From Candidatus Hodarchaeota archaeon (GTDB lineage: Archaea > Asgardarchaeota > Heimdallarchaeia > Hodarchaeales > Hodarchaeaceae), in assembly GCA_016839625.1 (NCBI GenBank), contig JAEOTY010000021.1:2263-26262 (forward strand): a DNA stretch of 24,000 bases, written 5' to 3'. The stretch's first letter is position 1. Each line of letters starts with the position of its first letter. Of this stretch, positions 7,127-24,000 are shown piece after piece. The notes beneath the pieces were generated by a model. That model saw nothing but the letters and a program-made list of their open reading frames with translations. It ran no database searches and had not been told where the DNA came from. The translations under genes and the position numbers were made by a program.

Positions 7127-7199
7127 TGAAATCTCCTTAGCTTTTGTATAAATCTATTAATAATTGGATTTTTTCATTATTATAATAAGCCATCAGACG

Positions 7200-7955: not shown

Positions 7956-8002
7956 GAGACTATCCAACCTATATAATTCTTTCCAGATAGAATAAGGAAC
8001 AT

Positions 8003-8320: not shown

Positions 8321-8329
8321 TTATGAGAA

Positions 8330-8854
8330 TTATTGATTTTTGAAATATTCTATTGCTTCTTTTATTATTTCAATTGCTGTTTCTCGATCCGCCCACCCAA
8401 CTATGTGTGTTGTTTTCCCACGTTCTAGATGCTTGTAAGTGTCAAAAAATTCTTCAATCTCACGTAATGAATGTTTAGGTACAGATTCCAATGATTGTAT
8501 TTCTTCCATCCTTGGATCATCTATAGAGACAGCGACAATCTTGTCGTCTTCGCCCTTTTCATCGTCCATTCGTAATACAGCTACTGGCCGTGCTAGAACA
8601 ATACATCCTGGGATCAGTTCAATTCCCGCACTGAGAAGGAGCAAAACGTCTAGTGGATCTCCATCCTTACAGAGTGTTCTTGGGATGTAACCATAAGCAC
8701 TAGGATATACAACTGACGAATGAAGAATTCTATCAACAAATATTGTGTTATATTCTTTATTAAATTCGTATTTCACCTTAGAACCTAAGGGAATTTCAAT
8801 TCTCACATAAATGTCCTCGGGTGGGTTTGGTCCTGGAGGAATTTCTTCTTTCAC
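8330..8854 (-). CDS. ppa: Inorganic pyrophosphatase, family I
   Basis: The 174-aa product carries YPSAYGYIPRTLCKDGDPLDVLLL and DEKGEDDKIVAV, the classic soluble PPase active-site blocks. Confidence 0.92.
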   Translation of the reverse strand: MKEEIPPGPNPPEDIYVRIEIPLGSKVKYEFNKEYNTIFVDRILHSSVVYPSAYGYIPRTLCKDGDPLDVLLLLSAGIELIPGCIVLARPVAVLRMDDEKGEDDKIVAVSIDDPRMEEIQSLESVPKHSLREIEEFFDTYKHLERGKTTHIVGWADRETAIEIIKEAIEYFKNQ

Positions 8855-8879
8855 ATTCCTTCTTCCTTAGACACAGATC

Positions 8880-9842: not shown

Positions 9843-9944
9843 TATTATTTCACTATTTCTCGTGCTGTGTTCTCAACATCTGATACCGATATTTATTAGA
9901 ACTCACTTTTAAAGATTTATTATGTTTTTGTGATGACATATGTT

Positions 9945-10847
9945 TTATTGACGAATCTTTGTAATAATATAATCGACTATACTTTTTGCCACCCGGATTT
10001 TTGGATGAGCGATTTCGAAAGCTTTCCAACCTGGGCACGCATTAACCTCTAGCAAATAAAGGCCCTTGTGAGTTGGGTATAAATCAATTCCTGCAACTTC
10101 TATTTTAACTCTCTCAATAATACGTAAAACCAGTTCTTGGTCTTCTTCGGATAGCTTATGAGGGATACAAGTAGCTCCTTGTGCATAATTCGTCCGCCAT
10201 TCACCTTTTGGTGCTATTCTACGCATGGATCCGAGTATCGTGTTTCCAACTACTAATACTCGAATATCCTCAATTTGATCGGGTGTGTCTTGTGAAGATC
10301 CCCTTAGGTACTCTTGCACCATAACGGGTGTGTCGTACCGTAAAAAAAGGGCATCAATTATTTCTTTGGCTCCGTGTCTACTAGGAGCAAGTATTGTTCC
10401 CGCTCCTTGTGTAGCATTAGGTAATTTAATCACGATTGGAAACTTAAATGACGTCATCAACTTGTCAAACATATAAGAATTGTTAATCAACATTGTTTTT
10501 GGCAGTAGAATACCTGGTATGTCACTTAGAGCCTGGTAACATCGAAATTTATCTCGTACCAAGAACAGGGCTTTGGAAGAAATTGTTGTGGGAATATTCA
10601 TTAATTCAAATTGCTGAAGAATTATTAAACCAATATCGGTTTGCGACCGACCGATTCTTGGGATGATTCCTGCTAAAGCTTTCAGTGTCTGGTTACCTAA
10701 GAATGCATCGATATCAGAAGAATCTATTAAAGGAGAGATAAATCGAGTGGATAGAAACACTCCGTTGATATCTCGTTGATCCATCTCAGCTAAGAGTTGG
10801 GTTGTTGGAAAATACTCACGATTCTTGCTTAGAACACCCAAATTCAT
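9945..10847 (-). CDS. RimK/LysX-family ATP-grasp ligase (alpha-L-glutamate ligase-like)
   Basis: The 300-aa product has ATP-grasp blocks FPIVIKLPNATQGAGTIL, VMVQEYL, DIRVLVVGNTILGSMRRIAPKGEWRTNYAQGA and YLLEVNACPGW. The substrate cannot be inferred from sequence. Confidence 0.8.
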   Translation of the reverse strand: MNLGVLSKNREYFPTTQLLAEMDQRDINGVFLSTRFISPLIDSSDIDAFLGNQTLKALAGIIPRIGRSQTDIGLIILQQFELMNIPTTISSKALFLVRDKFRCYQALSDIPGILLPKTMLINNSYMFDKLMTSFKFPIVIKLPNATQGAGTILAPSRHGAKEIIDALFLRYDTPVMVQEYLRGSSQDTPDQIEDIRVLVVGNTILGSMRRIAPKGEWRTNYAQGATCIPHKLSEEDQELVLRIIERVKIEVAGIDLYPTHKGLYLLEVNACPGWKAFEIAHPKIRVAKSIVDYIITKIRQ

Positions 10848-10954
10848 GGAAATCTCCCGTTTTCAACCTCAGTTAGCTCTATTCATTTTCTAATCTTACT
10901 TTTCCAATAAAAATGTTTTCGGTAATCTCGTAAAGTTTCCTAAGAAAATGATAA

Positions 10955-11062
10955 TGGCCCCGCCCAGATTCGAACTGGGGTCAGAGAATTACACCACGTG
11001 TTTCTATTTTGCTAGGAACACGTTCCAGAGTCCTCTATGATTGACCGCTACACCACGGGGCT
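10955..11062 (-). tRNA. tRNA-Gln (anticodon CUG) with an intron of about 35 nt at the canonical 37/38 position; CCA is not encoded
   Basis: The minus-strand sequence reads AGCCCCG-TG-GTGT-AGCGGTCAA-TCAT-A-GAGGA-CTCTGG-[AACGTGTTCCTAGCAAAATAGAAACACGTGGTGTA]-A-TTCTC-TGAC-CCCAG-TTCGAAT-CTGGG-CGGGGCC-A. The anticodon stem is GAGGA/TTCTC. U33 is present and the T-loop is TTCGAAT. The intron lies at about 10990-11024. Confidence 0.8.
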
Positions 11063-11066
11063 AGTG

Positions 11067-11279
11067 TTATCGAGTAGGACTAGAAAAAGTAAGGATGTCA
11101 TCAATCAATTCAACGTGAGTTATTAACATCCGTCGACAACAATAACGTTGTAGCTCAAAAGAATCAAGAAGTTCATTTGGGTCTTTTCCTTCCTTTACTC
11201 CTTGTTTAAACTCCTCATATAAGTGAGCTATTACCTTACCACAGGTATAGCAACGGATAGGGATCATCATTGCTCTCAT
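11067..11279 (-). CDS. rpoN: DNA-directed RNA polymerase subunit N (Rpo10/Rpb10 homolog)
   Basis: The motifs [13 protein letters not shown]...[16 protein letters not shown] are the diagnostic Zn-binding CxxC...CC signature of RpoN. The true start is probably the Met at 11270 or 11267 (MMIPIRC). Confidence 0.9.
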
Positions 11280-11294
11280 ACACCTCGGATTTGA

Positions 11295-11948
11295 TCACAT
11301 TTCCCCTGCTGGCATCGGTCTACGACCGCGTGGGGCCCTGAAATGTTCCACTCTCAGTTGAGCATCCTTTTCTGGTGTTAATTCTCCCCGTTCTTTTAAA
11401 ACTTCCTTTGTAAGAAGCCAAAAGATCATGGCGAGAGAATTACGGCCTTTGTTATTACAGGGAATTGCCACATCAACATTACTTGTAACGTTGTCAGTGT
11501 CTACCAGTGATACAACAGGGATCCCTACTCGTGCTGCTTCTTTAAGTGCTTGTCTATCAAAATGAGGATCAGTTATTAGCACGGTGGAAGGTTGTAGATA
11601 ATGGTATCGTCCATAAATATTAGGATTAGTAAAGATACCAGGGATAAAACGACCTGTGATTGGAATTGCACCTGCAACTTTGCTAAACATTTCAACGGGG
11701 TAAATCCCATATGCTCGTACGCTACAAGCCACCACCCTGTTTATATTCTGTCGAGCAAGGAATTGAGCAGCAACACGAATACGTTCATCGGTTTTATGGA
11801 CATCCAACACATATAAGCCATCGCTTCGTGTGCGATAAATCGCCCATTCCATGCTTTTCATCCCAGAAGAGGTTCCAATGTGGACGCCAGCTTTCAAATA
11901 ATCTTCTAGGGGGGCAAGTAGCTCTCCTTCTTGCTCAGGGGATAACAT
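11295..11948 (-). CDS. rps2: 30S ribosomal protein uS2 (archaeal/eukaryotic SA type)
   Basis: The 217-aa product contains LEDYLKAGVHIGTSSGMKSMEWAIYRTRSDGLYVLDVHKTDERIRVAAQFL and PVVSLVDTDNVTSNVDVAIPCNNKGRNSLAMIFWLL. Confidence 0.92.
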   Translation of the reverse strand: MLSPEQEGELLAPLEDYLKAGVHIGTSSGMKSMEWAIYRTRSDGLYVLDVHKTDERIRVAAQFLARQNINRVVACSVRAYGIYPVEMFSKVAGAIPITGRFIPGIFTNPNIYGRYHYLQPSTVLITDPHFDRQALKEAARVGIPVVSLVDTDNVTSNVDVAIPCNNKGRNSLAMIFWLLTKEVLKERGELTPEKDAQLRVEHFRAPRGRRPMPAGEM

Positions 11949-12071: not shown

Positions 12072-12845
12072 CTAATCATAAATAAATTGAATAGTCTTCC
12101 GTTCAGAGTCAGCCCAAGAGGCTCGTTCGGATTCTACCATTAGTTTCATGAGCATACGAACATCTGGCGGCGGGAGAGACGACCAAGATTGCTTCATTTT
12201 AACAATATCAAAAGCTGTGACCATATCATAACCGTGTTGAAAGGCATACTGGTATAACTCATCAGTATGGGACTTTAGGGTTTTCCAGTACACCCGAAGT
12301 CGTGTTTGTTCAGAATCCCACCATTTAGCTTTATCAATTTCAACCAAATACTCAGAAATCATAACTAGTTGGGGAAGAGTTAATTTTTTCTTCAGAATAG
12401 AATTTTGGAAAGGATAAACTAGCGCTACTTCTTGTAAATCAAGAATGTGGAAATTTAATACTCGGGCAAAATCAAGTATAAATTCGCCCCACGTAATGAG
12501 CCATTGTTGCTTGAGCTGTGGGTCATCAGGTACCATCCAGCGCCAAGGTTTTTTTACCCACGCAGGCAGAACTGGTTTTACTCGGGGATCAACGACTCCT
12601 GGTTGAAGTGTTGTAGTAAGAGAAGGTTTTACAGTTGATTCAACTGCTGTACGAATCTCAGGTATTGTCTTGTGTTGAAAAGATGGAGTTGTTGAAGGTC
12701 GTGACATTTCAGTGCTTATTTGTGTTAAATCTGGAGATTCTATCTCCGTCTTTTCCTTCGCAACCTCATCTAAGACTGATCCGAGAATATCTATTGATTC
12801 AGTTTTTTTCTTCTCTTTGTCTCTTTTTCGTTGCATTTCAGCCAT
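12072..12845 (-). CDS. vps25: ESCRT-II subunit Vps25-like protein with an N-terminal low-complexity extension of about 100 aa
   Basis: Residues from about 100 to 257 follow the tandem winged-helix pattern of eukaryotic VPS25: PWRWMVPDDPQLKQQWLITWGEFILDFARVLNFHILDLQE...PFQNSILKKKLTLPQLVMISEYLVEIDKAKWWDSEQTRLRVYWKTLKSHTDELYQYAFQHG. Compare human FPPFFTLQPN..TRQKQLAAW..LVL.FCR...LFNN..L.RKL...I..VL..L...GN.EW.D... Confidence 0.75.
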   Translation of the reverse strand: MAEMQRKRDKEKKKTESIDILGSVLDEVAKEKTEIESPDLTQISTEMSRPSTTPSFQHKTIPEIRTAVESTVKPSLTTTLQPGVVDPRVKPVLPAWVKKPWRWMVPDDPQLKQQWLITWGEFILDFARVLNFHILDLQEVALVYPFQNSILKKKLTLPQLVMISEYLVEIDKAKWWDSEQTRLRVYWKTLKSHTDELYQYAFQHGYDMVTAFDIVKMKQSWSSLPPPDVRMLMKLMVESERASWADSERKTIQFIYD

Positions 12846-12887
12846 GAAATCCCAACTTACTTTTCAAAAACAAATAAAAGGGTCAGA

Positions 12888-14036
12888 TTAACCCCCAAAT
12901 TGGTCTTTCCACTCTTCAAAACGCGTCAATTCTTTGGGTGACACTGAGGGTTTGATACTTTCCATACCTACAAGAAAATCCTTTGAACTTGGGGCTCGAG
13001 GTTGAATGGTTGTATCTTTTAGGGCTCCATCAGCGTCGAGCTCCCTGATCGGAGACATCAATGCTTCACGACAGAGTAGAGCAATATCTGCAGCTGTGTA
13101 TCCAGCAGTATACTTTGATAATTCCTCAAAACTCACATCAGGATCTAGATTCACGCCACGAGTATGAATCTGAAACATTTTTTCTCGGGCTCCTGTTGTT
13201 GGCAACGTTACATATACCCGTCTTTCAAATCGTCGGCGCATTGCTGCATCTATATCCCAGGGTGTGTTTGTTGCCCCAACTGTCACCAGTAGTTCATCTC
13301 CTGTACCAAATCCCTCAACTGCTTGTAATAATTGTGTTTTTACACGACGCATTGCTTCTCCTTCAGAACTGCCTCCTCTTGCTCCTGCTAGTGAGTCAAT
13401 TTCGTCAAAAAATATTATAGAAGGTGCTTCTTCAGTCGCCCGCTCATATAATTCCTGTACTAACTTTTCTGATTCTCCTAACCATTTGCTAATCAAGTTC
13501 GCTGCGCTGACAGAAAAAAATGTTGAGTCTACTTCTGATGCAACGGCCTTGCAGAGATAGGTTTTTCCACATCCAGGGGGGCCGTACATTAAAATTCCCT
13601 TCCATGGTTTCCGAGCACCTTTGAATAAATCGGGCCTAGACATAGGGAGGATGATGGCTTCTCGTAAGGCGCGTTTTGCACCTTCCATACCTGCGACATC
13701 TTCCCATTTAACATTGGGTTTTTCACGAACAATTACACTTGATATTGCTCCAGATATTTCATCTTCTGCTTCCGGTGATGCTGAGGCTGAAGAGCTTGTC
13801 TTACCTTCAGAAGAACCTGGTATACCACGAATTTCTTTTACACGAAGAATATATTCCATGGCTTTTTGATAGTACATATTCTTCATATTTGGGTCTTCAG
13901 TAAAATTAATCAGCTTTTGTAACTGTTCTGCAGCACTTACATAATAGCGTACAGCTTGTTGAGCTTGGCCACCTTGATCGAGTTTATATGCCATGGCTGC
14001 ATTCTTTTTGGCAGCATCAAACAATGGTGAACTCAT
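12888..14036 (-). CDS. vps4: Vps4/CdvC-type AAA+ ATPase with an N-terminal MIT domain
   Basis: The MIT-like three-helix N-terminus is AMAYKLDQGGQAQQAVRYYVSAAEQLQKL...YYQKAMEYILRVKEIR. Walker A is ILMYGPPGCGKTYL and Walker B is IIFFDEIDSL. The second region of homology is TNTPWDIDAAMRRRFERR. The product is 382 aa. Confidence 0.92.
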   Translation of the reverse strand: MSSPLFDAAKKNAAMAYKLDQGGQAQQAVRYYVSAAEQLQKLINFTEDPNMKNMYYQKAMEYILRVKEIRGIPGSSEGKTSSSASASPEAEDEISGAISSVIVREKPNVKWEDVAGMEGAKRALREAIILPMSRPDLFKGARKPWKGILMYGPPGCGKTYLCKAVASEVDSTFFSVSAANLISKWLGESEKLVQELYERATEEAPSIIFFDEIDSLAGARGGSSEGEAMRRVKTQLLQAVEGFGTGDELLVTVGATNTPWDIDAAMRRRFERRVYVTLPTTGAREKMFQIHTRGVNLDPDVSFEELSKYTAGYTAADIALLCREALMSPIRELDADGALKDTTIQPRAPSSKDFLVGMESIKPSVSPKELTRFEEWKDQFGG

Positions 14037-14104
14037 GTTTTAATCTCCAGAAAATACCTAATAATCAATGATAGAGAAAACCGAAGGGGGAGCTGCGCGT
14101 CCAT

Positions 14105-14719
14105 CTACCCTTTCTTGATTTTCTCCAATTCTTTTTGTAGTTCTTGGGATCGAATGTCAGGTGAAGGTAGTCCAAAATCAGCCGCAGCTGCCTTAGAAGC
14201 ACTTAATTCTCCTATTATCTTGTCTACCATTTCATCTTCCTCAATATCGGAGGTCATCATCTCAAACCCTTCATCCATGGCTTCAGTAGCCATGTCAACC
14301 CTTTCGGTTTCGATCTCCATCTGTTCAAGGACACCTTCTAGTTGAGGAATCTTAAGCTGTCTATTCATGGCGTGAAGTGTTTTCACTAGTCCCTTAAGAT
14401 CCTGACCTATGGCTTGAGTGGCTGCAGCTTGTTCTAGCTTGAATTTAATTCCTTTTACTCGACTCGCCATTTGTTGACATCCACGGGCCATGGTTCGATT
14501 TTTAGCTACATCTTTCGCTAATAGTCTTGCGGTCGACATATCGCCTTGTTCGATGGATCTCTCGACTTCCTTGAGCATCCGTTTTTCTTCTTTAATGAGT
14601 TTTCTCCGCTGACGATCCATTCGTCTTTCTACCATGCGAAGTCGACTAATCCATCTTCGTGTGGATTTTGCTCCACTACCTCCGCCTTTCAACCATTGTC
14701 CGAATTTATCGAAAACCAT
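14105..14719 (-). CDS. ESCRT-III (Snf7 family) protein, Vps2/24/46 (CHMP2/3/1)-like
   Basis: The 204-aa product has a basic N-terminal helical hairpin (RRMDRQRRKLIKEEKRMLKEVERSIEQGDMSTARLLAKDVAKNR), an acidic C-terminal half, and a terminal amphipathic helix SQELQKELEKIKKG that fits the MIM1 pattern L-x3-L-x2-[LI]-K. Confidence 0.85.
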   Translation of the reverse strand: MVFDKFGQWLKGGGSGAKSTRRWISRLRMVERRMDRQRRKLIKEEKRMLKEVERSIEQGDMSTARLLAKDVAKNRTMARGCQQMASRVKGIKFKLEQAAATQAIGQDLKGLVKTLHAMNRQLKIPQLEGVLEQMEIETERVDMATEAMDEGFEMMTSDIEEDEMVDKIIGELSASKAAAADFGLPSPDIRSQELQKELEKIKKG

Positions 14720-14721
14720 GT

Positions 14722-15396
14722 CTAGGACCTCAATCCTTCTTCAATCTGTCGTCTCATTTCATCTAGCTTCTTTTTATCAGCTTCACGCTTGGCAGGAGCT
14801 GCTGTTTCAGTCACAGTAGTGGTAGGAGTGGATGTTTCGATATTTGCTGCTGGTAATGAGCCTGACATTTCAGCTTCCAGCTCAGCCATTTGCATAGAGA
14901 TACGATCATCTGCCTCGACATCCATACCAATTTCTGTAATTGAGGTATCAGTCAAGGCTTCATCCATATCTGAAACCATCTCTATGGACTCTTCCAAAGA
15001 CATCATGACTTCTTCTGTTTTTTCAGGAGAAGCAGCTTCAACGTTAGCATCAATAGCCGTTTGGGCATGCGATAAGGTGTCTGTAAGAGTGACGTTATCC
15101 GCAGAGATGTCTAACGTATCAATCGTTCTTTGAAGGTTTGCAATTTTATTGTAAGTGTTTGTAACCTGAGTTAAATAGAGTTCACGGCGTTTTAATGCCT
15201 GTTGAGCTCCTAGTTTATTTCCAGCTTTCAACAGAGTTCGAGCAAGCTCATATTGTTCATTCGATTGTCTTTGATAGTTTTTAATTTTGACTTCCATTTG
15301 ATTGATGGTTCTCTTTAATTTGGCTTTCGTTTCAGTCGAACTACTAGGTTTTTTTCCGGTTAAAAAACCTCTAAATCTTTTCAAGGGTAAATTCAT
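14722..15396 (-). CDS. ESCRT-III (Snf7 family) protein, Vps20/32/60 (CHMP6/4/5)-like
   Basis: The 224-aa product has a basic N-terminal half with the Snf7-like block ARTLLKAGNKLGAQQALKRRELYLTQVTNTYNKIANLQRTIDTLD, a strongly acidic C-terminal half, and a C-terminal helix KKKLDEMRRQIEEGLRS. Its stop lies 2 nt before the start of the next ESCRT-III gene. Confidence 0.8.
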   Translation of the reverse strand: MNLPLKRFRGFLTGKKPSSSTETKAKLKRTINQMEVKIKNYQRQSNEQYELARTLLKAGNKLGAQQALKRRELYLTQVTNTYNKIANLQRTIDTLDISADNVTLTDTLSHAQTAIDANVEAASPEKTEEVMMSLEESIEMVSDMDEALTDTSITEIGMDVEADDRISMQMAELEAEMSGSLPAANIETSTPTTTVTETAAPAKREADKKKLDEMRRQIEEGLRS

Positions 15397-15600
15397 CTCA
15401 CTAAATTATTAATAAATAATTATTATTCTTATTAATTTAAAGTCTTTACTTGTTCTTCAGATTTGTTATTTAAAAAAACTTCCCATCCAAAACTCTAAAA
15501 GTCCCTTTATGAGTTTAAAAAATTGAATACTTATCTATTCACACCTAGAATGTTTCGCTATCAGAATAGAAGGGAGTGTACCAACGTTTTAATGAGGTGA

Positions 15601-16317
15601 TCAAACCCCTGGAAAAGAAATGACCATTCCATCTAGAGTTTCAGTTTTAATTGCAATTTTCTGTTGGATTAGTTTTGTCAGAGCTTGATTCACACGTTCT
15701 AATGTCCATGATGTCTCTTGAACCAACTCGGTTAAACCAATTTCTCCTTGAAATCGAGCTGCTAGTTCCAGTATAACTTGGTGGTCTTTGGTTAGATTTG
15801 GATCTACAAAAACAACCACTTTCATGCCAGCTAATTGACGGATTTCATGAATCATACCATTTTTTTCTAATAAACTTAGAGCAGTTGTGATATCAGCGAT
15901 TGACGTTGTAATGCCTCGACTCTCATCTGTTAATTTTAACACTAATTCAGATACACTTAGAAGACCACCAGTTTGATTTCTCACTTGTTTTCCAATTTCA
16001 AGTATCCTGATTGCCAAAAAATTGTGATATTCATCCGTTCCCTTCAAACGCTGAATGAAACCTGATTTTTTACCGACTTCATAAATCCCGAGTGCACGTG
16101 GAAGACCGACTTCTTCCCTAAGATTCATTAAACGTTTTGAGAGTTCGGGATTTTTCTTTATATCAGCTTGATACTTTTTTTCTAACGTTTGTAACTCAGT
16201 GTGAAGCTCTTGGACTTTCTTGCTCATAGTATCTAAGGATTTCAGTGCCATTTCTGCACCTTTCCGCTTCATTTCAGCTTCCCTGGTGAGCTTCTCTTCA
16301 ATTCGTCGTAATCCCAT
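15601..16317 (-). CDS. vps22: ESCRT-II subunit Vps22/36-like protein (EAP30 domain)
   Basis: The 238-aa product is collinear with human SNF8/EAP30. Matching blocks are KYQADIKKNPELSKRLMNLREEVGLPRALG (vs KHKQEIRKNPEFRVQFQDMCATIGVDPLASG), YHNFLAIRILEIGKQVRNQTGGLLSVSEL (vs [28 protein letters not shown]) and DHQVILELAA (vs DHTVVLQLAE). Confidence 0.85.
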   Translation of the reverse strand: MGLRRIEEKLTREAEMKRKGAEMALKSLDTMSKKVQELHTELQTLEKKYQADIKKNPELSKRLMNLREEVGLPRALGIYEVGKKSGFIQRLKGTDEYHNFLAIRILEIGKQVRNQTGGLLSVSELVLKLTDESRGITTSIADITTALSLLEKNGMIHEIRQLAGMKVVVFVDPNLTKDHQVILELAARFQGEIGLTELVQETSWTLERVNQALTKLIQQKIAIKTETLDGMVISFPGV

Positions 16318-16555
16318 GAGAATTCCTATCTTTTCTTCTTTGATGTCAAGATTAATTGGATTTACTTTATTTATAATTTTATATTTTCCGATACCGGATA
16401 ATCATGCTAAGGCTAATAATGCTGCTTACAAGGATGAATAATGATTCTACTTAACACATTCTGGAAAACAGATGAAATCTAATAATACCATATTATGTCC
16501 AGATTTTGTATGCTTATAAACATCAAACTGAATTACGTACCTACTGGGATTATAC
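16318..16555. promoter_or_regulatory. AT-rich divergent intergenic region, probably holding promoters for the Vps22/36-like gene (-) and the Zn-finger gene (+)
   Basis: The 238-nt non-coding gap lies between divergent starts. TATA-like TTATAAA at 16514-16520 sits 36-42 nt upstream of the + ATG. An A/T block at 16366-16386 (minus-strand reading ATATAAAATTATAAATAAA) sits 50-70 nt upstream of the minus ATG. There is no experimental support. Confidence 0.35.
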
Positions 16556-17893
16556 ATGGTGCTCGAGCCGGCTTCCGGGAGATCAAACCTGTTTTGTTCA
16601 TTTTGTGGTACTATGGTTCGTGAATTAGAATCCCAGAAATGTTTAGACTGTGGTGCAGCATTCTGCCAGCAATGCGCCTCCCGCTTACAAATCAATGGAA
16701 TCCAACTTAAATGTCCATGTGGTTCAGCCAATATCGAATCTGGATCTCCAGAACAAAATTCACAGACTCAAACTTTGGAACATATTTTTAGTTTGAAACG
16801 CTCTTTAAAACAAGTAGGTTATCGTCCCGTAATTATGCTTAAACGAACTGGCCATCTTGAATCAAGATTGAGAGCTTTTCGAAAACAATTTCTTATCCCA
16901 GGAAATCAGATTGATAAAATATTCCTCGACACCAAAAAGATTGAAAATTTTATACTATCAGAGTTTCAGGAATATTCTTCCAAATTAAGTCGACTATATC
17001 GTAGTGTAATGGGCCTAGATTCCTCATTCATCGATCATCGCAATCTTTCTCTTCAACTAACGCTTTTTCATAAGCAGGTTGATAGTTTTGATCAAACAGT
17101 TCAAGACAAACTTCAACCAATTTTTAGTTTAATTGAGCAATTAGAGGATAAGTGCGATCAGTTTGACGAGATGTCACGACATCTTGGACGGTGCTTTGAT
17201 GCTTTTGTTTTTGTACCTGGTGAACTTGCTATTGGTTTTTTCTCTAATGTTGAATTAAGGAACAATCGGATAAGAAAGTTTACAATAGACTTGTTAATTA
17301 CTACTGACCGAATTGTAATGTTTTGTAAAAAGAGGACCAAAATAATTGGTCAAAAAACAATAATTTATGATGAATTTCCTCCTGAAGATCTGATTGATGT
17401 TCAAAAGACAAATGCGGGTTTCTTAAAACGTGATAAGCTTCAAATAACAACCATTAAGCATGATTATGAATTACGTGCGAATTTCGAGACTTTAATGCGT
17501 ATCTTTGATGCTCTCCAATTGAGTTACTACGGCCGTCCAAGTGAAATCTATATTCATGAACCTTTTCGAGATTGGTCTTCAGAGATTTATCAAGAAAAAA
17601 TACTCTCTTACCTTAATTTCCAAACTAAAGTTAGTGGGTCTTCCAATCCAACCAATGACCATGAAAGAGAACCTGATTTTGTAACAGGGGTTCTCGACGA
17701 CCGTCTTCGTGATCTGCGTCTTCGCAAACTAGCAAATGAAAAGGCATTGCAAGAACTTAAGGAGGGGCGGAAAAAAGTAGCTAGTCGAGATTATTTCGAC
17801 CTAGTTAGACAATTCGAATTAGAACTAGCCAAAATAAATGAAGCGATGACAGAATTACTAGTCCGAACAGGAAAAACAAATCTTTTGAATTAA
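16556..17893 (+). CDS. Uncharacterised ESCRT-cluster protein with an N-terminal 8-Cys RING-like zinc finger, a central PH/GRAM(GLUE)-like region, and a C-terminal coiled coil with a steadiness-box-like motif
   Basis: The product is 445 aa. Cys spacing is C14-x2-C17-x11-C29-x2-C32-x4-C37-x2-C40-x12-C53-x-C55. Residues about 218-321 (GELAIGFFSNVELRNNRIRKFTIDLLITTDRIVMFCKK...DLIDVQKTNAGFLKRDKLQITTIKHDYELRANFETLMRIFDAL) follow the PH/GRAM strand pattern. Residues 378-435 have coiled-coil heptads ending in KKVASRDYFDLVRQFELELAKI. Confidence 0.7.
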   Translation: MVLEPASGRSNLFCSFCGTMVRELESQKCLDCGAAFCQQCASRLQINGIQLKCPCGSANIESGSPEQNSQTQTLEHIFSLKRSLKQVGYRPVIMLKRTGHLESRLRAFRKQFLIPGNQIDKIFLDTKKIENFILSEFQEYSSKLSRLYRSVMGLDSSFIDHRNLSLQLTLFHKQVDSFDQTVQDKLQPIFSLIEQLEDKCDQFDEMSRHLGRCFDAFVFVPGELAIGFFSNVELRNNRIRKFTIDLLITTDRIVMFCKKRTKIIGQKTIIYDEFPPEDLIDVQKTNAGFLKRDKLQITTIKHDYELRANFETLMRIFDALQLSYYGRPSEIYIHEPFRDWSSEIYQEKILSYLNFQTKVSGSSNPTNDHEREPDFVTGVLDDRLRDLRLRKLANEKALQELKEGRKKVASRDYFDLVRQFELELAKINEAMTELLVRTGKTNLLN

Positions 17894-17906
17894 ATCAATG
17901 ATATAT

Positions 17907-18536
17907 TCAGAGATTCGCCAACTCTCTACGAAAATCTGAAAGCCATCGTGCTGTTTGTAATTCTAGCTTTTTCAATTCATCTTGTCTTAATAGCTGGCCT
18001 GGTTTCTGTCTATCCATCCACTTAATCCACTCATCGATATCTCTTGTTACCCAATGATTAGACCCATAGACATGAGCTTCAGTTAAAATTGCATGGAGCT
18101 CATCTAAATATGGTAGAATCCGATCTACGGTAGCAATGGCTTCTAACCGAAGAAGGTCCAATACCTCGATGGCGTTGGCAACAAACTCGGCAGCAATCTT
18201 TGGTAATTTTTTAATTTGACTATAATCAATACGGTTTCGAGCATTATCATCTGTTCCCTCTGTTATCCGGAGTTTTTCAAGACCGTGGGGATATTGTTGA
18301 TCGATTTTTTCTTCCCGAATGAAATCATCTAAATCAAATTGGTAGGTTTCTAGCTTTGCTCGGATTGCAACAATGGTCGTTAAGAGATTTTTATGCTGTT
18401 TATGAAAGATATTCGGATCTAACTCGCCTTTTTCGTATGTCCGAGATAAAAGATCAAGAGTCCCAATAGTCGCAAATAATTGCCCTTCCAATTCCCAACG
18501 TTTTGTTAGATTTGGAGGAAAAGTCATTAATTTCAT
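17907..18536 (-). CDS. vps28: ESCRT-I subunit Vps28-like protein
   Basis: The 209-aa product has an N-terminal core LFATIGTLDLLSRTYEKGELDPNIFHKQHKNLL. Its C-terminal four-helix-bundle block AAEFVANAIEVLDLLRLEAIATVDRILPYLDELHAIL...EWIKWMDRQKPGQLLRQDELKKLELQTARWLSDFRREL is collinear with eukaryotic VPS28 (...FIT.MD.LKL......I.P.L.DL...L....WL..L..M.ASDEL.E.Q.RQL.FDLE.AY..F...L). Confidence 0.85.
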   Translation of the reverse strand: MKLMTFPPNLTKRWELEGQLFATIGTLDLLSRTYEKGELDPNIFHKQHKNLLTTIVAIRAKLETYQFDLDDFIREEKIDQQYPHGLEKLRITEGTDDNARNRIDYSQIKKLPKIAAEFVANAIEVLDLLRLEAIATVDRILPYLDELHAILTEAHVYGSNHWVTRDIDEWIKWMDRQKPGQLLRQDELKKLELQTARWLSDFRRELANL

Positions 18537-18537
18537 C

Positions 18538-19329
18538 CTATCCCAAGTATTCCGTTTGTTTTCGAGCTATATAGAGTTCCTTGGAGTACTTTTTATATAA
18601 ACGTGAGTATTCGAAAATTGAGATCTCACCAGAGGCATAACGGTCTTCAAGTGCCGCTAATAGCTCTGAGATAGCAATACGTTCTGATTCGATGCTATCT
18701 TGGGTTGAAAGCCTTTTGCCCTCATCACTATCTGAGGGTTGTGCTTGAGTCATTTGTTGTGCATGAAATCGAGCCAATTCTTCATCTTTTTCTTGTATTT
18801 GTTTAGTTAATGAGGATAACTCTGTTCTTAGCGCTGTTGTTTCTGCAAATACTGTCTTATTTGGAGACACTGGAGGTGTTTCTATTATACGTGCTACTGT
18901 ATCGCGAACAGATTTAGCAGTTTCTCCTTTAGGAGTGGGAGGCACTCTAGACATCAGATTTTTTAGTGCAATGATCACTTGATAGAGATGAAACTCAGCA
19001 CGCCAATTATCCAAGATTCGTAATTGAACAAAACCATCATCATCAATGTTAGGGTGATCCATCCATCCCACTGCTGTTACTACAGGAGGAACGTTAGGAA
19101 AGTATTCTGGAAGAAATATTTCAAATGTAAACATGTTACGGCCACGATTGGTGGTATATGTCAAGGTTCCTTTCCATCTAGCCAAGGAATCTCCCACAGG
19201 ATTAAAACCAAAAGCTGCTGAATTAGAATATACCAGTTGTGCCTCTCGAGCTAAAATAAAATCTTTATCCATATTTGTGGCTCCTTTCTTCAAATTAAAT
19301 ACTGAATCATTAATGTATTTAAATTTCAC
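18538..19329 (-). CDS. ESCRT-I Vps23/Tsg101-like protein: UEV (inactive E2 variant) domain, coiled-coil stalk and C-terminal steadiness box
   Basis: The UBC-fold blocks are WKGTLTYTTNRGRNMFTFEIFLPEYFPNVPPVV and DHPNIDDDGFVQLRILDNW. The position of the E2 catalytic Cys (HPN...G.IC.DIL) is Gln102 (codon 19024-19026). The tail LLAALEDRYASGEISIFEYSRLYKKYSKELYIARK resembles the Tsg101 steadiness box (L..AL..G.I.L..FLK.VR.LSR.QF). An alternative start is Met20 (19272). The stop lies 1 nt from the Vps28-like start. Confidence 0.8.
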   Translation of the reverse strand: MKFKYINDSVFNLKKGATNMDKDFILAREAQLVYSNSAAFGFNPVGDSLARWKGTLTYTTNRGRNMFTFEIFLPEYFPNVPPVVTAVGWMDHPNIDDDGFVQLRILDNWRAEFHLYQVIIALKNLMSRVPPTPKGETAKSVRDTVARIIETPPVSPNKTVFAETTALRTELSSLTKQIQEKDEELARFHAQQMTQAQPSDSDEGKRLSTQDSIESERIAISELLAALEDRYASGEISIFEYSRLYKKYSKELYIARKQTEYLG

Positions 19330-19490: not shown

Positions 19491-20711
19491 TTATTTTTTC
19501 CCCCTAGGTTTTTTCACAGTAGTTAAAAAATCTATAATAGCTTCTCCTAACAACTCGAATGCTTGTTCAACATTCTGGCCTGTTTTGGCACTTGTAGATA
19601 GAAAGTAAATCTTGAAACCTCGGTATTGTTCAGCAATTTGAGACAGTCTTTCAACAAATACTTTCGCTTTATTTTCAGACACACAAGGGATTCCCGAGCT
19701 AGATAAGTCTACTTTGTTTCCCAAAACAACTAACGGGACAGGACCATGCCCATTGTTCCGCCAAAGCTCATTCAGCCATTTGGGTATGTTTTGAAAGCTT
19801 TCTGGACGAGTTACATCAAAAACAAGTAATGCACCTACACTGGCAGAATAATAAGCTTTCCGAACGTTATTAAAACGAGGTTGACCTGCCAGATCCCAGA
19901 TCAAGTATTTGATTTGTTTACCACCACTATATACTATATCAGATGTTTTAGCAGCAAGATCGGCTCCTATTGTCATTTGATAGTCATCACGAAATCCTTC
20001 GCCTAAGTAACGTCTCCTAATGGACGTTTTACCAACTGCACCATCTCCAATTAAAATAACCTTTAACGTATGATGTTCTTGAACAAAAGTTGCTTTTACT
20101 GACGTGATAGCTTCATCAATGGCTGCACGTAATTCTGGATTGGTCTTAATATTTTGATCAGTATGATAATTCAGGATTTGTACAATTTGAACGGCTAACG
20201 TACCCACCATATCTCGTGATGTTCCCTTAGATGTCACTATGGCGATAACCAACTCTCCAATGACGAAGAAATGAATTGTTTGAGATTCGAGAGTAAGAAC
20301 CTCCAACAATTCGCCAAGATTGTAGCGGACATAACTTTTTATTGCATAAAAAATGAAGTTCATAGATTCCTTATAGTCAATTTTATCGGAGAGCTGATAA
20401 TTAAACAATAATTGCCCATTGTTCATAAAACATGAAATTAAGAAAATTTCTTCAGTCTTTTTTGCTCGTTCTAATCCAAATTTTTTGAAATCCGCTATCT
20501 GATCCTCTTCAGTTTTTTCAGCTTGAGCATAAGCTTCTTCAATGATGTTCAAATAATCGCCCCGTCCCGATAATGCCTTTTCAAGATCTACTCGAACTTT
20601 CAGTTCGAACTCCTCCATTTCGTCAGGGCGTTGATCATTTGTGATCTTGGTTTCAAGTGTTTTTGGCTCTTTCTTTTCGTTTGTCTCGAAAGAAGAGTCT
20701 TTTTCTTCCAT
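19491..20711 (-). CDS. Fusion protein with an acidic N-terminal region, a roadblock/LC7(longin-like) domain and a Rab/Ras-like small GTPase domain
   Basis: The GTPase motifs are G1 GDGAVGKTS, switch I YQMTIGADL, G3 WDLAGQ, G4 GNKVDL and G5 STSAKTG (aa about 215-400). Residues about 88-182 (IFLISCFMNNGQLLFNY...HFFVIGELVIAIVTSKGTSRDMVGTLAVQIVQIL) show a roadblock/MglB-like alpha-beta pattern. Confidence 0.85.
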   Translation of the reverse strand: MEEKDSSFETNEKKEPKTLETKITNDQRPDEMEEFELKVRVDLEKALSGRGDYLNIIEEAYAQAEKTEEDQIADFKKFGLERAKKTEEIFLISCFMNNGQLLFNYQLSDKIDYKESMNFIFYAIKSYVRYNLGELLEVLTLESQTIHFFVIGELVIAIVTSKGTSRDMVGTLAVQIVQILNYHTDQNIKTNPELRAAIDEAITSVKATFVQEHHTLKVILIGDGAVGKTSIRRRYLGEGFRDDYQMTIGADLAAKTSDIVYSGGKQIKYLIWDLAGQPRFNNVRKAYYSASVGALLVFDVTRPESFQNIPKWLNELWRNNGHGPVPLVVLGNKVDLSSSGIPCVSENKAKVFVERLSQIAEQYRGFKIYFLSTSAKTGQNVEQAFELLGEAIIDFLTTVKKPRGKK

Positions 20712-20976
20712 GTGAATATCTTACTCCAATTTTTGTCCAGCGAAGAGGTGTTTACTGCATTGTGTCTAAGAAATAAATAGCCTTCATCCTCTAAAAGTGT
20801 TTGTCTTTTAGCTTAAAATGATGATGTGTTTTACCATATAATTGTAAAAAAATAATTATAAGATACCCATATTATGTAATGACACAAAATTAAAGTAGAT
20901 TTGTACAACAAATAGTCGAAGAAAAGATAATTTAAAACCATGAGAAGGAAAGATGTAATTATTAGGATGTGAAAAG

Positions 20977-21954
20977 ATGGGTGAATTATTAGGACCTTTA
21001 GATGATCAAATCATTATTTTATTGCAAACATTCAGTCCACTCCTTGATCTAATTTTTGGATTAATCACTTTTTTTGGAGATGAACTATTTATAATCGCAA
21101 TTATAGTTATTATTTTCTTCTGTATCGATAAGGAGATAGCAATTCGATCAGCTTTTTTGGTTGTTTTTACAGGTTTCATAACGACTTCAGCAAAAGGAGT
21201 ATTTGGTCTTAAGAGACCATACATCGTTAATGATGCAGAGATACAAGGAATCCCTGATATTATAGGACAACTTCCAGAAGATTATACTTTTCCAAGTGGT
21301 CATTCATCCAATGCGGGATCATTCTGGACATATTTAGCCACACGTTGGCGTAATCCTAGTTTTTGGGCCATTGCCATATTCATGATTGTAATTATCCCTC
21401 TTTCACGTAGCTATCTAGGTGTACATTGGCCAACTGATATAATTGTGGGAGCTTTGCTAGGAATTTCAGTTGCTTTACTGTTTACTTATTTTTTACCCAA
21501 GATAGAAGTTTTTGTTAATAAAACCTCACCCAGAACTCTTGGAATATTTGCTATAGTTATTCCTATTTTAGGGGTTATTATTTCTTACATGCTTACAATC
21601 GGAATGGGTAATGAAATAGAACACGCTGATCCTAGTTCATTAGGGGGGCTTTTTCTTGGCTTAGCTGTTGGTTATATCCTTGAAAATCGTTATGTAAATT
21701 TGAAAGTGAAAGAATTTCGATCGAACAAGAAAATACTTGTCTATCGGGGAATTGCAGGGGTTATTATTATCCTAGCATTGTACTTTGGTATGAGTGCTAT
21801 TTTTAAAATTCTTTTTGAAGGTTTTCCCCTTGAATATATCTCACGATTCATCAGATATGCAATTCTAGCATTTTTTGGTATCTTTTGTCTCCCATGGTTA
21901 TTTTCTACAATTGAACAAAAATTATTATTGGAGCCTGGAGGTTTAGCGGAATAG
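20977..21954 (+). CDS. PAP2-superfamily membrane phosphatase (phosphatidic acid or polyprenyl-diphosphate phosphatase type)
   Basis: All three PAP2 signature motifs are present: KGVFGLKRPY (KxxxxxxRP), FPSGHSSNAG (PSGH) and SRSYLGVHWPTDIIVGALLG (SRxxxxxHxxxD). There are multiple TM helices, and extra C-terminal TMs follow. Confidence 0.85.
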   Translation: MGELLGPLDDQIIILLQTFSPLLDLIFGLITFFGDELFIIAIIVIIFFCIDKEIAIRSAFLVVFTGFITTSAKGVFGLKRPYIVNDAEIQGIPDIIGQLPEDYTFPSGHSSNAGSFWTYLATRWRNPSFWAIAIFMIVIIPLSRSYLGVHWPTDIIVGALLGISVALLFTYFLPKIEVFVNKTSPRTLGIFAIVIPILGVIISYMLTIGMGNEIEHADPSSLGGLFLGLAVGYILENRYVNLKVKEFRSNKKILVYRGIAGVIIILALYFGMSAIFKILFEGFPLEYISRFIRYAILAFFGIFCLPWLFSTIEQKLLLEPGGLAE

Positions 21955-22156
21955 TAAAGTTAATCTAATTTCTGATACACTTATATTCAATCCTAGCATC
22001 CTTTCAATTATATTATTTACTTTGATAAGTTGGCATTAATCTGTTGAAAAAATAACAGGATTACTCACTATTCATAAATACAGTCACAAATATGGTCAAT
22101 GTTGATATACTTATGTGAGAAAAGAATTTCTCTCTAAAACATATGATGTGAAGAAT

Positions 22157-22930
22157 ATGTCTGAGTCAGAATCCCTTATCTGTCCCAATTGTAGTGAAAG
22201 AAGCCCAGGAGGTTATATTCTTTGTCCATATTGTGGTTTCGATTTGACAAAAATTGTACGGGCAAGAGAACGTGTACGTGTTAATTTTAGAGAAAGATTT
22301 TCACGGATTTGGAGGAGTCTTTTTGACCCGAGACAGAGTCAAAGGCTTTTTAGGGAGATCGGAGTCAATCCTGATCGCACAGGAGCACTATTAGTTTTAT
22401 TTCTTCTTTCAGTAGCTTATGGCTTACGACTTGGCGCACTAGTACTAAAAGCTGGCTTTGATACTGGTGCTTCGTGGCATGATTTGCATTTTTGGTATTT
22501 ATTGATTTCTCCTTGGTTTCTAGCGATTGGTTTTGTTTTTCTGGCACTATTTGGATGGTTTATCAGTAGTTGCGTTGTTTGGTTTATCGCAACCCGACTT
22601 GGTGGCAAAGCGAGTTTTAGAGACACTCAAGGAATTGTTGGTTATTCGTTCGGGCCTTTGATTACTGCTTCACTAATAATTAATCTAATTCTGGCCAGTC
22701 AAGCCCTGATACCAATTCTAGGAATCAATCTAAGTTCTATCACCCCCACAACCGTGGATCAGTTAGTAATTCTTGAGCTAATCAATATTCCCTTTATGGG
22801 ACTTGTTGCTTACCATTGCGGAAACGGTATTCGTTCGGCTCATCTACTCAATAATTATTTCTCATATGGTATTAGCGGCGGTGTAACCCTCTTATATCTC
22901 GTAATTTTCTTTTTACCAGTCATTTTTTAG
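22157..22930 (+). CDS. Membrane protein with an N-terminal zinc ribbon and a Yip1-like multi-TM domain
   Basis: The track ORF begins at GTG 22115, but ATG at 22157 (MSESESLICPNC...) is the likelier start. The zinc ribbon is CPNC-x12-CPYC. About 5 TM helices follow, with a loop and TM layout reminiscent of Yip1-domain proteins. That family call is tentative. Confidence 0.55.
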   Translation: MSESESLICPNCSERSPGGYILCPYCGFDLTKIVRARERVRVNFRERFSRIWRSLFDPRQSQRLFREIGVNPDRTGALLVLFLLSVAYGLRLGALVLKAGFDTGASWHDLHFWYLLISPWFLAIGFVFLALFGWFISSCVVWFIATRLGGKASFRDTQGIVGYSFGPLITASLIINLILASQALIPILGINLSSITPTTVDQLVILELINIPFMGLVAYHCGNGIRSAHLLNNYFSYGISGGVTLLYLVIFFLPVIF

Positions 22931-23004: not shown

Positions 23005-24000
23005 TTAATCAAAAATAATCTCGAATTTCAAGGGGGATGATAAAGTCGGATCAACCACGCGAAAAATAGCCCCTGATGTAAAGATTTTTCCAACTCTCTC
23101 GCTTGTAATCGCTAATTTTTGAGTTTGAAACAGGATTGCCATTTCAGGTCCTAGATTGAATGAATATTGGAGCTGTATAACAAAGTCCTTTAGCTGTTGA
23201 TCACTAGGAGAACGGATTGGAATTGCTTTGAGTTGGTAGCGAGGTGAGCACACAATGCAATCTTCTCGACGTTCAAGAGGAACAGAAGTAAATATTCCCG
23301 CCTTCCCATCCCAAAAAAGATATTCTTTCAAAGGTGGAAGGCCAAGAATGATTTTAAGAGCCTCCTGAACCATTAATCCACCAATAACGAAGGAAACACT
23401 CGATACATAAGGAATGAATTCTTCCTCCTTCTCCTCAGGATGGATTTCTTTTCTTACTTCCCCAAAGGGGGTACAGGCTTTTTGAAGCTCTTCTTCAGGA
23501 ATTAAAGATTGACATTCCAAACAGGGGCTTTTCTGAGGAATAACTACTTGGAGGTTTCCAAGAAAACTATAAATACCTCCAGATACCAATGGAATGTGTG
23601 ATCCAATGGCAAAGGAGTTGATCCAACGTCGTGTTTGGAATGTATCTAAACCATCGAGAATAACTGTCGATGTCTCTAAAGTATGTCTTGGGGCTTTTTC
23701 AATGGGCATGTTCAATTTGTTTATGTGAATTTCGGGGTTTATTTCATGGAGGATCTGAGCAGAAATGTCCACTTTAGCCTTTCCAACATCTGTTGGCCTA
23801 AAAAATAATTGTCTATTCAAATTACTCATTTCAATTGTATCAAAATCAACTAGAATAAGCGTTCCAACTCCTGTCATTGCTAATGAGGCAGCAGCAACCG
23901 TACCCAATGCCCCAAGACCAACTAGTGTTACAGTACTTTGCAGGAGCTTTTCTTGATCCCAATTTTCAATCAACAGTTGGCGATTATACCGATCACTCAT
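23005..24000 (-). CDS. E1-like ubiquitin/Ubl-activating enzyme (ThiF/MoeB/UBA adenylation fold) with a C-terminal extension of about 78 aa
   Basis: The product starts MSDRYNRQLLI...VTLVGLGALGTVAA (GxGxxG) and contains VDFDTIEMSNLNRQ. Two CxxC pairs (C160LEC, C248IVC) form the structural Zn site. A crossover-loop Cys is at KAC176TPFG. The ATG sits exactly at the window edge (23998-24000). An extra C-terminal region spans aa 254-331. Confidence 0.85.
   Translation of the reverse strand: MSDRYNRQLLIENWDQEKLLQSTVTLVGLGALGTVAAASLAMTGVGTLILVDFDTIEMSNLNRQLFFRPTDVGKAKVDISAQILHEINPEIHINKLNMPIEKAPRHTLETSTVILDGLDTFQTRRWINSFAIGSHIPLVSGGIYSFLGNLQVVIPQKSPCLECQSLIPEEELQKACTPFGEVRKEIHPEEKEEEFIPYVSSVSFVIGGLMVQEALKIILGLPPLKEYLFWDGKAGIFTSVPLERREDCIVCSPRYQLKAIPIRSPSDQQLKDFVIQLQYSFNLGPEMAILFQTQKLAITSERVGKIFTSGAIFRVVDPTLSSPLKFEIIFD

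Follow-up and report, generated by a model that had tools for sequence, protein, structure and literature searches.

The window analysed here, a stretch of 24,000 nucleotides (nt) from contig JAEOTY010000021.1 of a Candidatus Hodarchaeota archaeon, ends with a complete open reading frame (ORF) of 331 amino acids (aa) on the minus strand (23005..24000), which very probably encodes the ubiquitin-activating enzyme (E1) of an Asgard (Hodarchaeales/Heimdall-group) ubiquitin system. Its start codon, ATG (24000-23998), is formed by the last three bases of the window, with the stop codon TAA located at 23007-23005. By analogy, the protein appears to be the Asgard counterpart of the reconstituted E1-like enzyme of Caldiarchaeum subterraneum. 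[quoted passage not shown]

Adenylation domain and cysteine residues

The gene was identified by a match to the Pfam ThiF family, by its homologues and by structure prediction with AlphaFold2 (AF2). The ThiF model (PF00899) was found to match residues 5-248 of the protein with an E-value of 1.8e-59 (201 bits against a cut-off of 28.1), which, as a sequence match, is judged to lie far beyond chance. Together with the matches of the family profile to structures of the PDB, this places a predicted adenylation domain of the ThiF/MoeB/E1 type at residues 1-252 (23245..24000, minus strand). In an alignment of 66 members of the E1 family (41-90% identity), the start position (MSDRY...) was found to be common to the E1 protein and its homologues. 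In the scan of species representatives described below, the protein was at most 81% identical to that of any such genome. Two motifs were read in the protein, namely the nucleotide-binding loop GLGALG (residues 28-33; 23902..23919, minus strand), in which A31 and G33 are invariant among the 66 sequences and conservation at G28 and G30 reaches 90% or more, and the SNLNRQ motif (residues 59-64; 23809..23826, minus strand), in which N60 and Q64 are invariant and 90% conservation or more is likewise reached at S59, L61 and R63. The RYxRQ sequence at the N-terminus, K76 and D119 were also found to be invariant in this alignment.

Comparison of the single protein sequence with the PDB gave E. coli ThiF as the best match (2.7e-33), with MoeB close behind, whereas the family profile matched the active adenylation domain of Uba1 best (2.3e-54), followed by UBA3, ThiF and MoeB (188 bits for Uba1 and 177 for UBA3, against 168 for ThiF and 158 for MoeB). 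UBA5 was identified as another match of both the protein and the family profile. The full-length AF2 model, built from the alignment of 66 sequences, reached a mean predicted local distance difference test score (pLDDT) of 87.1 and a predicted template modelling score (pTM) of 0.83, with blocks at the C-terminus scoring 91-95.

The E1 protein was found to possess exactly five cysteines (residues 160, 163, 176, 248 and 251), all of which are invariant among the 66 family members. Four of these form two CxxC pairs, C160 with C163 (23512..23523, minus strand) and C248 with C251 (23248..23259, minus strand), which align with a CxxC of ThiF and with its C-terminal CxxC, respectively, and are predicted to form a structural zinc site. 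The crossover loop (residues 164-199; 23404..23511, minus strand), as delimited by alignment, conservation and the AF2 model, holds C176 (codon at 23473-23475), which is the only candidate for a thioester since no other cysteine lies outside the zinc site. It also holds an acidic insertion, EVRKEIHPEEKEEEF (residues 181-195), with ThiF showing a gap of 17 residues opposite residues 181-197 of the E1 protein in a pairwise alignment. Approximately 36 residues separate the first CxxC from the next core helix, and no dedicated catalytic-cysteine domain is present in the crossover loop. The only poorly defined internal segments of the AF2 model are residues 171-178 and 191-194, which form the loop around C176, and their low pLDDT suggests that this loop is mobile. 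The GxGxxG and SNLNRQ motifs, the four-cysteine site, C176, the acidic insertion and a set of strand-like strings towards the C-terminus had all been described in an initial annotation of this DNA, and each was found at the residues given there.

A predicted ubiquitin-fold domain at the C-terminus

Alignment of the E1 protein to E. coli ThiF (251 aa) and MoeB (249 aa) stops at approximately residue 252. As the alignment ends here and ThiF is gapped at residues 181-197, both the extension at the C-terminus and the acidic insertion can be regarded as real features of the protein. The extension comprises residues 254-331 (23008..23241, minus strand), and these are the 78 additional residues following the second CxxC, without counterpart in ThiF or MoeB, which the initial annotation had counted and suggested to form a UFD. 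Strand-like strings within it are KDFVIQLQYSF (residues 271-281), MAILFQTQKLAI (residues 287-298), AIFRVVD (residues 311-317) and LKFEIIFD (residues 324-331), with both the length of the domain and its hydrophobic pattern being kept across the E1 family, in which D317 and K325 of the domain show conservation of at least 90%. Its description as a domain draws on AF2, Foldseek, a sequence profile and Pfam matches of relatives.

Modelling of this domain alone with AF2 (residues 253-331, 79 aa, using an alignment of 30 sequences) gave a pLDDT of 92.7 and the order strand-helix-strand-strand-short helix-strand-strand. The region was thus predicted with high confidence as a beta-grasp, and not as disordered or of a different fold. 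When the model was compared to the PDB using Foldseek, the best 13 matches were all UFDs of E1 enzymes (probability 1.00, query TM-score 0.67-0.78), as had been proposed for this domain, with the first free ubiquitin variant appearing at rank 32. These matches included UFDs of UBA3 (3fn1_A, 2lq7, 1y8x_B and the UBA3 chains of 2nvu, 3gzn, 3dbh and 3dbr), of yeast and human Uba2/SAE2 (3ong, 3onh, 5fq2_B and 4w5v_B) and of an Arabidopsis E1 (6gum_B), several of these structures having been solved with their E2 bound. In UBA3-Ubc12 (1y8x) and Uba2-Ubc9 (3ong), helix 1 of the E2 lies against the sheet of the UFD.

At the level of sequence, a profile of the domain matched the ubiquitin-like (UBL) domains of polyubiquitin, Rad23 and BAG6 in the PDB (E-values of 4e-4 to 1e-2), with no E1 UFD among its matches there. 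The sequence therefore supports the term ‘ubiquitin-like’, with the structure alone supporting the term ‘UFD’. A Pfam scan of the C-terminal domains of 30 relatives identified ubiquitin (PF00240) in eight, E2_bind (PF08825, the UFD family of UBA3) in two, with a best E-value of 0.0016, and UAE_UbL (PF14732) in one (0.0063). The UFD-only profile also matched the C-terminus of E1-like proteins from Caldarchaeales (E-value of 1.6e-8). Taken as a model, the domain is predicted to be a beta-grasp that is closest to the UFDs of E1 enzymes. A fused modifier (an E1-Ubl protein ending in GG) was also considered for this gene and was rejected, the C-termini of the family being variable and none of them having a terminal GG.

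Gene neighbourhood and competing readings

No ubiquitin gene is present within the window, and its only UBC-fold protein is a UEV that lacks cysteine. The absence of a ubiquitin or active E2 gene had already been remarked upon in the initial annotation, with the suggestion that both might lie just past position 24000. This proved correct for ubiquitin. A Logan contig of 3.1 kb (L001), obtained by an exact-protein look-up and differing from the window by six mismatches over 3032 nt (99.8% identical), extends 71 nt beyond position 24000; these additional nucleotides encode ...ITRTTGGLS followed by a stop codon, then 39 nt, and then the ATG of the E1 gene. In an orthologue locus of 90% identity (L002) and in the complete genome CP070695.1 (L004), the same slot was found to be occupied by an 80-aa ubiquitin gene (PF00240, E-value of 3e-15 in L002) with a product ending in TTGGLS and TTGGFPN, respectively. 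Directly upstream of this gene on the same strand, a KaiC/RecA-like ATPase (PF06745, E-value of 1.2e-41) and an Arf-like small GTPase were observed (L002, 61-1455; L004, 8206-9570). Farther upstream in L004, a RING-like protein of 109 aa was identified (zf-RING_2, E-value of 1.8e-5, with 25.3 bits falling below the Pfam cut-off of 27.3), as was a UBC enzyme of 151 aa (PF00179, E-value of 7e-36) with the motif HVN...C. Four other neighbours in L004 remained without annotation from Pfam, with proteins of 97, 148 and 338 aa giving no match and a protein of 134 aa giving coiled-coil noise only.

A scan of species representatives (one genome per species, GTDB) was performed, yielding 80 E1 loci, 77 of which had enough flanking sequence for ubiquitin linkage to be counted; hidden Markov models (HMMs) built from the proteins of the locus were run on all ORFs of the 80 loci. 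These are nearly all from Asgard lineages (Heimdall, Hod, Jord, Frey, Odin, Baldr, Hel, Thor and Kari), together with three Thermoproteota/Nitrososphaerota genomes. In 66 of the 77 loci, a same-strand ubiquitin gene was found no more than 1.5 kb upstream of E1, and in 44 it lies within 300 nt. An E2 gene lies between ubiquitin and E1 in 21 loci, and Vps4, Snf7 or EAP30 was found within 8 kb of E1 in 35. Since the iterated HMMs for E2, UEV and Vps28 cross-contaminated each other through UEV-Vps28 fusions, active E2 enzymes and UEVs were told apart by the catalytic-cysteine motif. With this motif (HVNIF[KR]EKVC), an active E2 was located 5.5-6.2 kb upstream of E1 in 14 of the 17 closest relatives, and so not immediately past the edge of the window as had been suggested. 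In 24 loci GG forms the very end of the ubiquitin, and in 41 it is followed by a tail of 1-6 residues (L008-L087). These tails vary (F, L, Y, S, LS, FPN, TNR, YGQFI and others) and imply a processing protease in most lineages.

The gene past the right edge also bears on a role in sulfur-carrier activation, where the protein would, in the manner of MoeB, ThiF or UbaA, adenylate a beta-grasp protein for thiocarboxylate formation (for molybdopterin, thiamine or tRNA thiolation), as its sole function or besides protein conjugation. ThiF is the top match of the single sequence in the PDB with MoeB near, a cysteine in the crossover loop is common to ThiF, and orthologues carry the public label ‘HesA/MoeB/ThiF family’ or ‘sulfur carrier protein...’. 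Both sulfur transfer and conjugation are performed by the archaeal UbaA/SAMP and the Urm1/Uba4 systems. However, the partner gene encodes a PF00240 ubiquitin with a tail following GG, and not MoaD or ThiS, whose presence had been put forward as the sign of such a pathway. Furthermore, no genes for molybdenum cofactor or thiamine synthesis or for rhodanese were found within 10 kb in the window, L002, L004, L006 and L007, E2 and RING genes are syntenic, the UFD is an addition not seen in ThiF or MoeB, and the family profile scores Uba1 and UBA3 above both. The sulfur-carrier reading was consequently given very little credence, with a pure role of this kind being unlikely; a secondary role in sulfur transfer is conceivable.

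Several observations weigh against the reading as a ubiquitin-activating enzyme whose UFD docks an E2. In pairwise alignment, a cysteine of ThiF falls in the column of C176, and for this reason C176, while compatible with thioester chemistry, is neither proof of it nor diagnostic of an E1 as opposed to ThiF; the initial annotation had presented this residue as compatible with thioester formation as in true E1 enzymes, and although it is the sole cysteine outside the zinc site, its weight is less than was claimed. The Foldseek E-values are modest (3e-4 at best) and stem from a predicted model as query, and the 79 aa at the C-terminus of the window protein match no Pfam family at E<=10, with the UFD models PF08825, PF09358 (E1_UFD) and PF14732 included. 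Because the Pfam UFD models miss the window copy and rarely match its relatives, the likeness to a UFD is structural with a faint signal in sequence. E2 and RING genes were seen in relatives only, with none on the contig of the window, and the active E2 of this organism probably lies beyond the contig. RING and JAMM/deubiquitinase genes had both been proposed as targets of a search upstream, which in L004 recovered the RING-like protein described above, below the cut-off, with no JAMM/deubiquitinase gene being recognised by Pfam within 10 kb. Lastly, no free active E2 was found within 8 kb in Heimdallarchaeaceae-type loci.

These Heimdallarchaeaceae-type loci (L041-L073; for example L007, 9611-12496) display the order ubiquitin - E1 - UEV-Vps28 fusion, with fusions of 466-489 aa in which HPN is kept and the UBC part is without cysteine. 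In contrast, Jord-, Frey-, Odin-, Baldr- and Helarchaeota carry ubiquitin-E2-E1 operons. The former arrangement would suit a protein that activates ubiquitin with a beta-grasp domain that is not a dock for E2, binding instead another partner (for example the ESCRT-I UEV) or acting as a self-regulating mimic of ubiquitin, with conjugation proceeding independently of E2 as in SAMPylation. The weak match of the UFD profile to ubiquitin itself and the ability of the C. subterraneum E1 to auto-ubiquitylate without E2 are also in keeping with this. Nevertheless, in the fold comparison E2-binding UFDs rank ahead of ubiquitin, in the 21 loci mentioned above a single operon holds ubiquitin, an E2 and then E1, an active E2 is kept nearby in close relatives of the window, and the E1 and E2 of C. 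subterraneum form a stable complex. A role of the domain other than docking of an E2 is therefore regarded as improbable, and an E1 with an E2-docking UFD is preferred.

The UEV lies 3.7 kb from the E1 gene. It was identified as a UEV-Vps23-like ESCRT-I protein (18538..19329, minus strand; PF00179, 9.7e-14, and PF05743, 3.3e-4) with a UBC fold in which HPN is kept. Its orthologues read HPNID..GF[VI]QLRIL, with glutamine at the catalytic position, and it is presumed to be a reader of the ubiquitin mark. The remainder of the ESCRT cluster was located at 12072..18536 on the basis of Pfam matches and is encoded on the minus strand, excepting a zinc-ribbon gene on the plus strand. It consists of Vps28 (17907-18536), EAP30 (Vps22/36; 15601-16317), two Snf7 genes (14105-15396), Vps4 (12888-14036) and a Vps25-like ESCRT-II gene (12072-12845), with those of Snf7 and Vps4 assigned through the Pfam matches of syntenic orthologues of the same length in L002 and L004. 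The zinc-ribbon gene (16556-17893, plus strand) encodes a protein of 445 aa with a cysteine-rich, zinc-ribbon-like segment at the N-terminus and no significant Pfam match. It sits between EAP30 and Vps28, with the same slot occupied by proteins of 449 aa in L002 and 437 aa in L004, and can be described as an uncharacterised but conserved component of the ESCRT cluster in Hodarchaeales.

Three genes with a membrane-traffic flavour (19491-22930) separate E1 from the UEV and are also present in L002 and L004. These encode a Ras/Rab-like GTPase with an extension of approximately 200 aa at the N-terminus (19491-20711), a PAP2 lipid phosphatase (20977-21954) and a Yip1-domain membrane protein with a double zinc ribbon at the N-terminus (22115-22930).

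With regard to other genes of the window, the cluster is flanked by housekeeping genes on the minus strand (5137-5913 and 8330-11948) for a PAC2 proteasome-assembly-chaperone-like protein, inorganic pyrophosphatase, RadA/Rad51, a RimK-type ATP-grasp ligase and ribosomal protein S2 (uS2). An ORF of more than 1012 aa (1-3036, minus strand) runs off the left edge of the window and contains a subtilase domain (PF00082, E-value of 1.3e-30); its hydrophobic, signal-like N-terminus (MQIIKRNFLLIFSLVLLLTPF...) in combination with this domain points to a protease that is probably secreted or located at the surface. On the same strand, two ORFs that overlap each other (6145-6603 and 6579-7016) match profile positions 190-297 and 308-374 of the pyridoxal phosphate-dependent decarboxylase family PF00282. 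As a pair (6145-7016) they lack the first 190 or so profile positions, and from their sequence they have the appearance of a pseudogene (frameshifted or truncated) or of an error in assembly. Two adjacent proteins of 188 and 395 aa (3226-4980, plus strand) resemble tetratricopeptide repeat proteins by eye only, and a polytopic membrane protein of 263 aa (7164-7955, plus strand) gave no Pfam match.

Relation to known E1 enzymes and proposed pathway

Ubiquitin-like domains at the C-terminus of E1-like proteins have been described for Heimdall- and Lokiarchaeota (Hennell James et al. 2017, PMC5654768, Supplementary Note 4), where PHYRE2 matched the E1 C-termini of Heimdallarchaeota (LC_2, LC_3 and AB_125) and Lokiarchaeum to the NEDD8/SUMO E1 structures 2nvu, 3kyd and 3gzn (Supplementary Table 2B). 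Synteny of genes for ubiquitin, E1, E2 and E3 with those for ESCRT-I, -II and -III and Vps4 has been reported in Loki-, Hel-, Odin- and Heimdallarchaeota, as has the binding of ubiquitin by UEV (Hatano et al. 2022, PMC9192718). The archaeal UBL-bearing enzymes (Clusters I/II of Hennell James et al. 2017) share with the window E1 the ThiF domain, a beta-grasp at the C-terminus that threads onto NEDD8/SUMO E1 UFDs, and the same neighbours (ubiquitin, UEV, Vps28, EAP30, Snf7 and Vps4), differing from it in lineage only, the window protein being a Hodarchaeales-type orthologue. The AB_125 locus was itself recovered in the species scan (L066). Gene order in loci of the window type is ubiquitin-E1-Yip1-PAP2-GTPase-UEV-Vps28, compared to ubiquitin-E1-UEV-Vps28 or ubiquitin-E2-E1 in other archaeal loci. 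The window E1 shows the predicted beta-grasp at the C-terminus and, in the near-identical L001, the adjacent gene for a ubiquitin with Gly-Gly near its end by which this archaeal family is defined.

The system of C. subterraneum has been reconstituted, with ATP-dependent activation of ubiquitin and E1-E2 binding demonstrated, and its pro-ubiquitin, which bears a tail at the C-terminus, is refractory to E1 until trimmed by Rpn11 (PMC5654768). The E1-like protein (Csub_C1476) was reconstituted with its ubiquitin, E2, RING E3 and Rpn11. Its orthologues in Caldarchaeales (L085-L087, metagenome-assembled genomes of Thermoproteota/Nitrososphaerota, with E1 at approximately 7989-9155) were found with full-length and UFD-only profiles to be homologous to the window E1 along their whole length, the ubiquitin-like C-terminus included, and the neighbouring ubiquitin ends in VLITRTVGG, exactly as in the C. 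subterraneum peptide. This ubiquitin shares the ending ...TRTxGG with that of the window type, and the E2 of close relatives of the window shares a helix at the N-terminus and a PTF motif with CSubE2. Identity between the C. subterraneum-type E1 and the window E1 is approximately 34-36%. The Caldarchaeales proteins are larger (386-388 aa), bearing an insert some 55-60 residues larger (the ‘cysteine domain’) where the window E1 has its acidic insertion of 15-17 residues; their genes form a compact ubiquitin-E2-E1 operon, with no ESCRT-I/II genes as neighbours. A cysteine aligned with C176 precedes this insert, and the ubiquitin HMM also matches the C-terminal domain of these proteins.

Among eukaryotic enzymes, UBA3, Uba2/SAE2 and Uba1 resemble the window E1 in the active adenylation domain (profile E-values to 2e-54) and the zinc site, and possess the UFDs that match its C-terminus best; judged from the model, a UFD fold at the C-terminus would be shared with canonical eukaryotic E1 enzymes. 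The latter (Uba1, UBA3-NAE1 and Uba2-Aos1) are nonetheless pseudo-dimers in which an inactive adenylation domain is paired with an active one, within a single chain or across two subunits, with a dedicated FCCH/SCCH cysteine domain, whereas the window E1 has one ThiF domain, no partner subunit and no such cysteine domain, its presumed catalytic cysteine lying on a loop of 36 residues. Its UFD is also smaller (approximately 75 aa, compared to 92-114 aa). E. coli ThiF and MoeB resemble it in their single adenylation domain, RYxRQ N-terminus, two CxxC pairs, the crossover-loop cysteine (from the ThiF alignment) and, probably, in being homodimers. They differ in ending right after the second CxxC, without a UFD or the 17-residue insertion, and in having ThiS and MoaD as partners, where the partner of the window E1 is a PF00240 ubiquitin and relatives have E2 and RING genes nearby. 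UBA5 and ATG7 are homodimeric E1 enzymes with a single adenylation domain and a catalytic cysteine on the crossover loop, as opposed to a large cysteine domain, and as such would provide the closest mechanistic analogy. They recruit their E2 enzymes through C-terminal peptides or other domains and not by a UFD.

Operons encoding E1, E2 and ubiquitin-like proteins in prokaryotes are often defence systems (PMC10557695), and the locus could on that account belong to a conflict system of the bacterial Ubl/E1/E2/JAB type (Bil or 6E/CEHH operons) directed against viruses, instead of to housekeeping ubiquitin-ESCRT functions. The E1 of the Bil system, BilD, has a true E2 and a ubiquitin-like partner and a four-cysteine zinc site, as expected of the window E1; it functions in anti-phage defence and is composed of IAD, AAD and CYS domains with no UFD (PMC10557695). 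This pairing of inactive and active adenylation domains with a CYS domain is the opposite of the architecture seen here. The E1 gene also occupies a fixed place beside ESCRT genes across Asgard lineages, and no JAB or defence genes are adjacent to it in the window or in L004 (PADLOC was not run). A defence system was rejected on architecture and conserved context, and is the least credible of the readings considered, having next to no likelihood.

For the preferred reading, a ubiquitin-activating enzyme, the following pathway can be proposed. The E1 would probably act as a homodimer like ThiF and MoeB, given its one adenylation domain and the absence of a second PF00899 gene within 10 kb of E1 in its relatives (L002, L004, L006 and L007). 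The LS tail of the ubiquitin encoded 39 nt upstream implies a processing step, in which a protease would trim these residues following Gly-Gly. The E1 would then bind MgATP and the trimmed ubiquitin and adenylate its C-terminal glycine, with the ubiquitin subsequently moved to C176 on the mobile crossover loop as a thioester. Docking by the UFD of a UBC-type E2 of approximately 150 aa, whose gene in relatives is located some 5.5-6 kb upstream with that of a small RING-like protein following, would allow the E2 to take over the thioester. The UEV-Vps23/Vps28 proteins of ESCRT-I, whose genes lie near E1, would finally recognise the ubiquitylated targets. It might also be, more speculatively, that where a UEV-Vps28 fusion directly follows E1 without a nearby E2, the UFD docks the UEV and so couples ubiquitin activation to ESCRT.

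As a UFD-bearing archaeal E1-like enzyme and its ESCRT linkage have already been published, the gene is a further orthologue in a described context. What is added here is the confirmation by AF2 and Foldseek of a UFD-like domain, the counts of ubiquitin, E2 and ESCRT linkage over 77-80 genomes, and the recognition of the Hodarchaeales/Heimdall form as the most stripped-down version, with five cysteines and no cysteine domain. That this would be the smallest natural E1 with an E2-docking UFD (331 aa, one adenylation domain, five cysteines, a 36-residue loop and no cysteine domain) is a doubtful proposition; if true, recruitment of E2 by a UFD would predate the insertion of the cysteine domain and the duplication behind the pseudo-dimers of eukaryotic E1 enzymes. 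The main practical value lies in annotation, with public records describing such proteins as ‘ThiF/MoeB family adenylyltransferase’ or ‘sulfur carrier protein adenylyltransferase’. Being very compact, with one candidate catalytic cysteine, the protein would furthermore make a convenient target for in vitro reconstitution of an E1-E2 step from Asgard archaea. Hodarchaeales are among the closest archaeal relatives of eukaryotes in published phylogenomics, and Asgard ubiquitin-ESCRT clusters are central evidence for ubiquitin-directed membrane remodelling being older than eukaryotes. The locus described here leaves prior beliefs on this matter unchanged and provides a well-supported example of such a cluster from Hodarchaeales.

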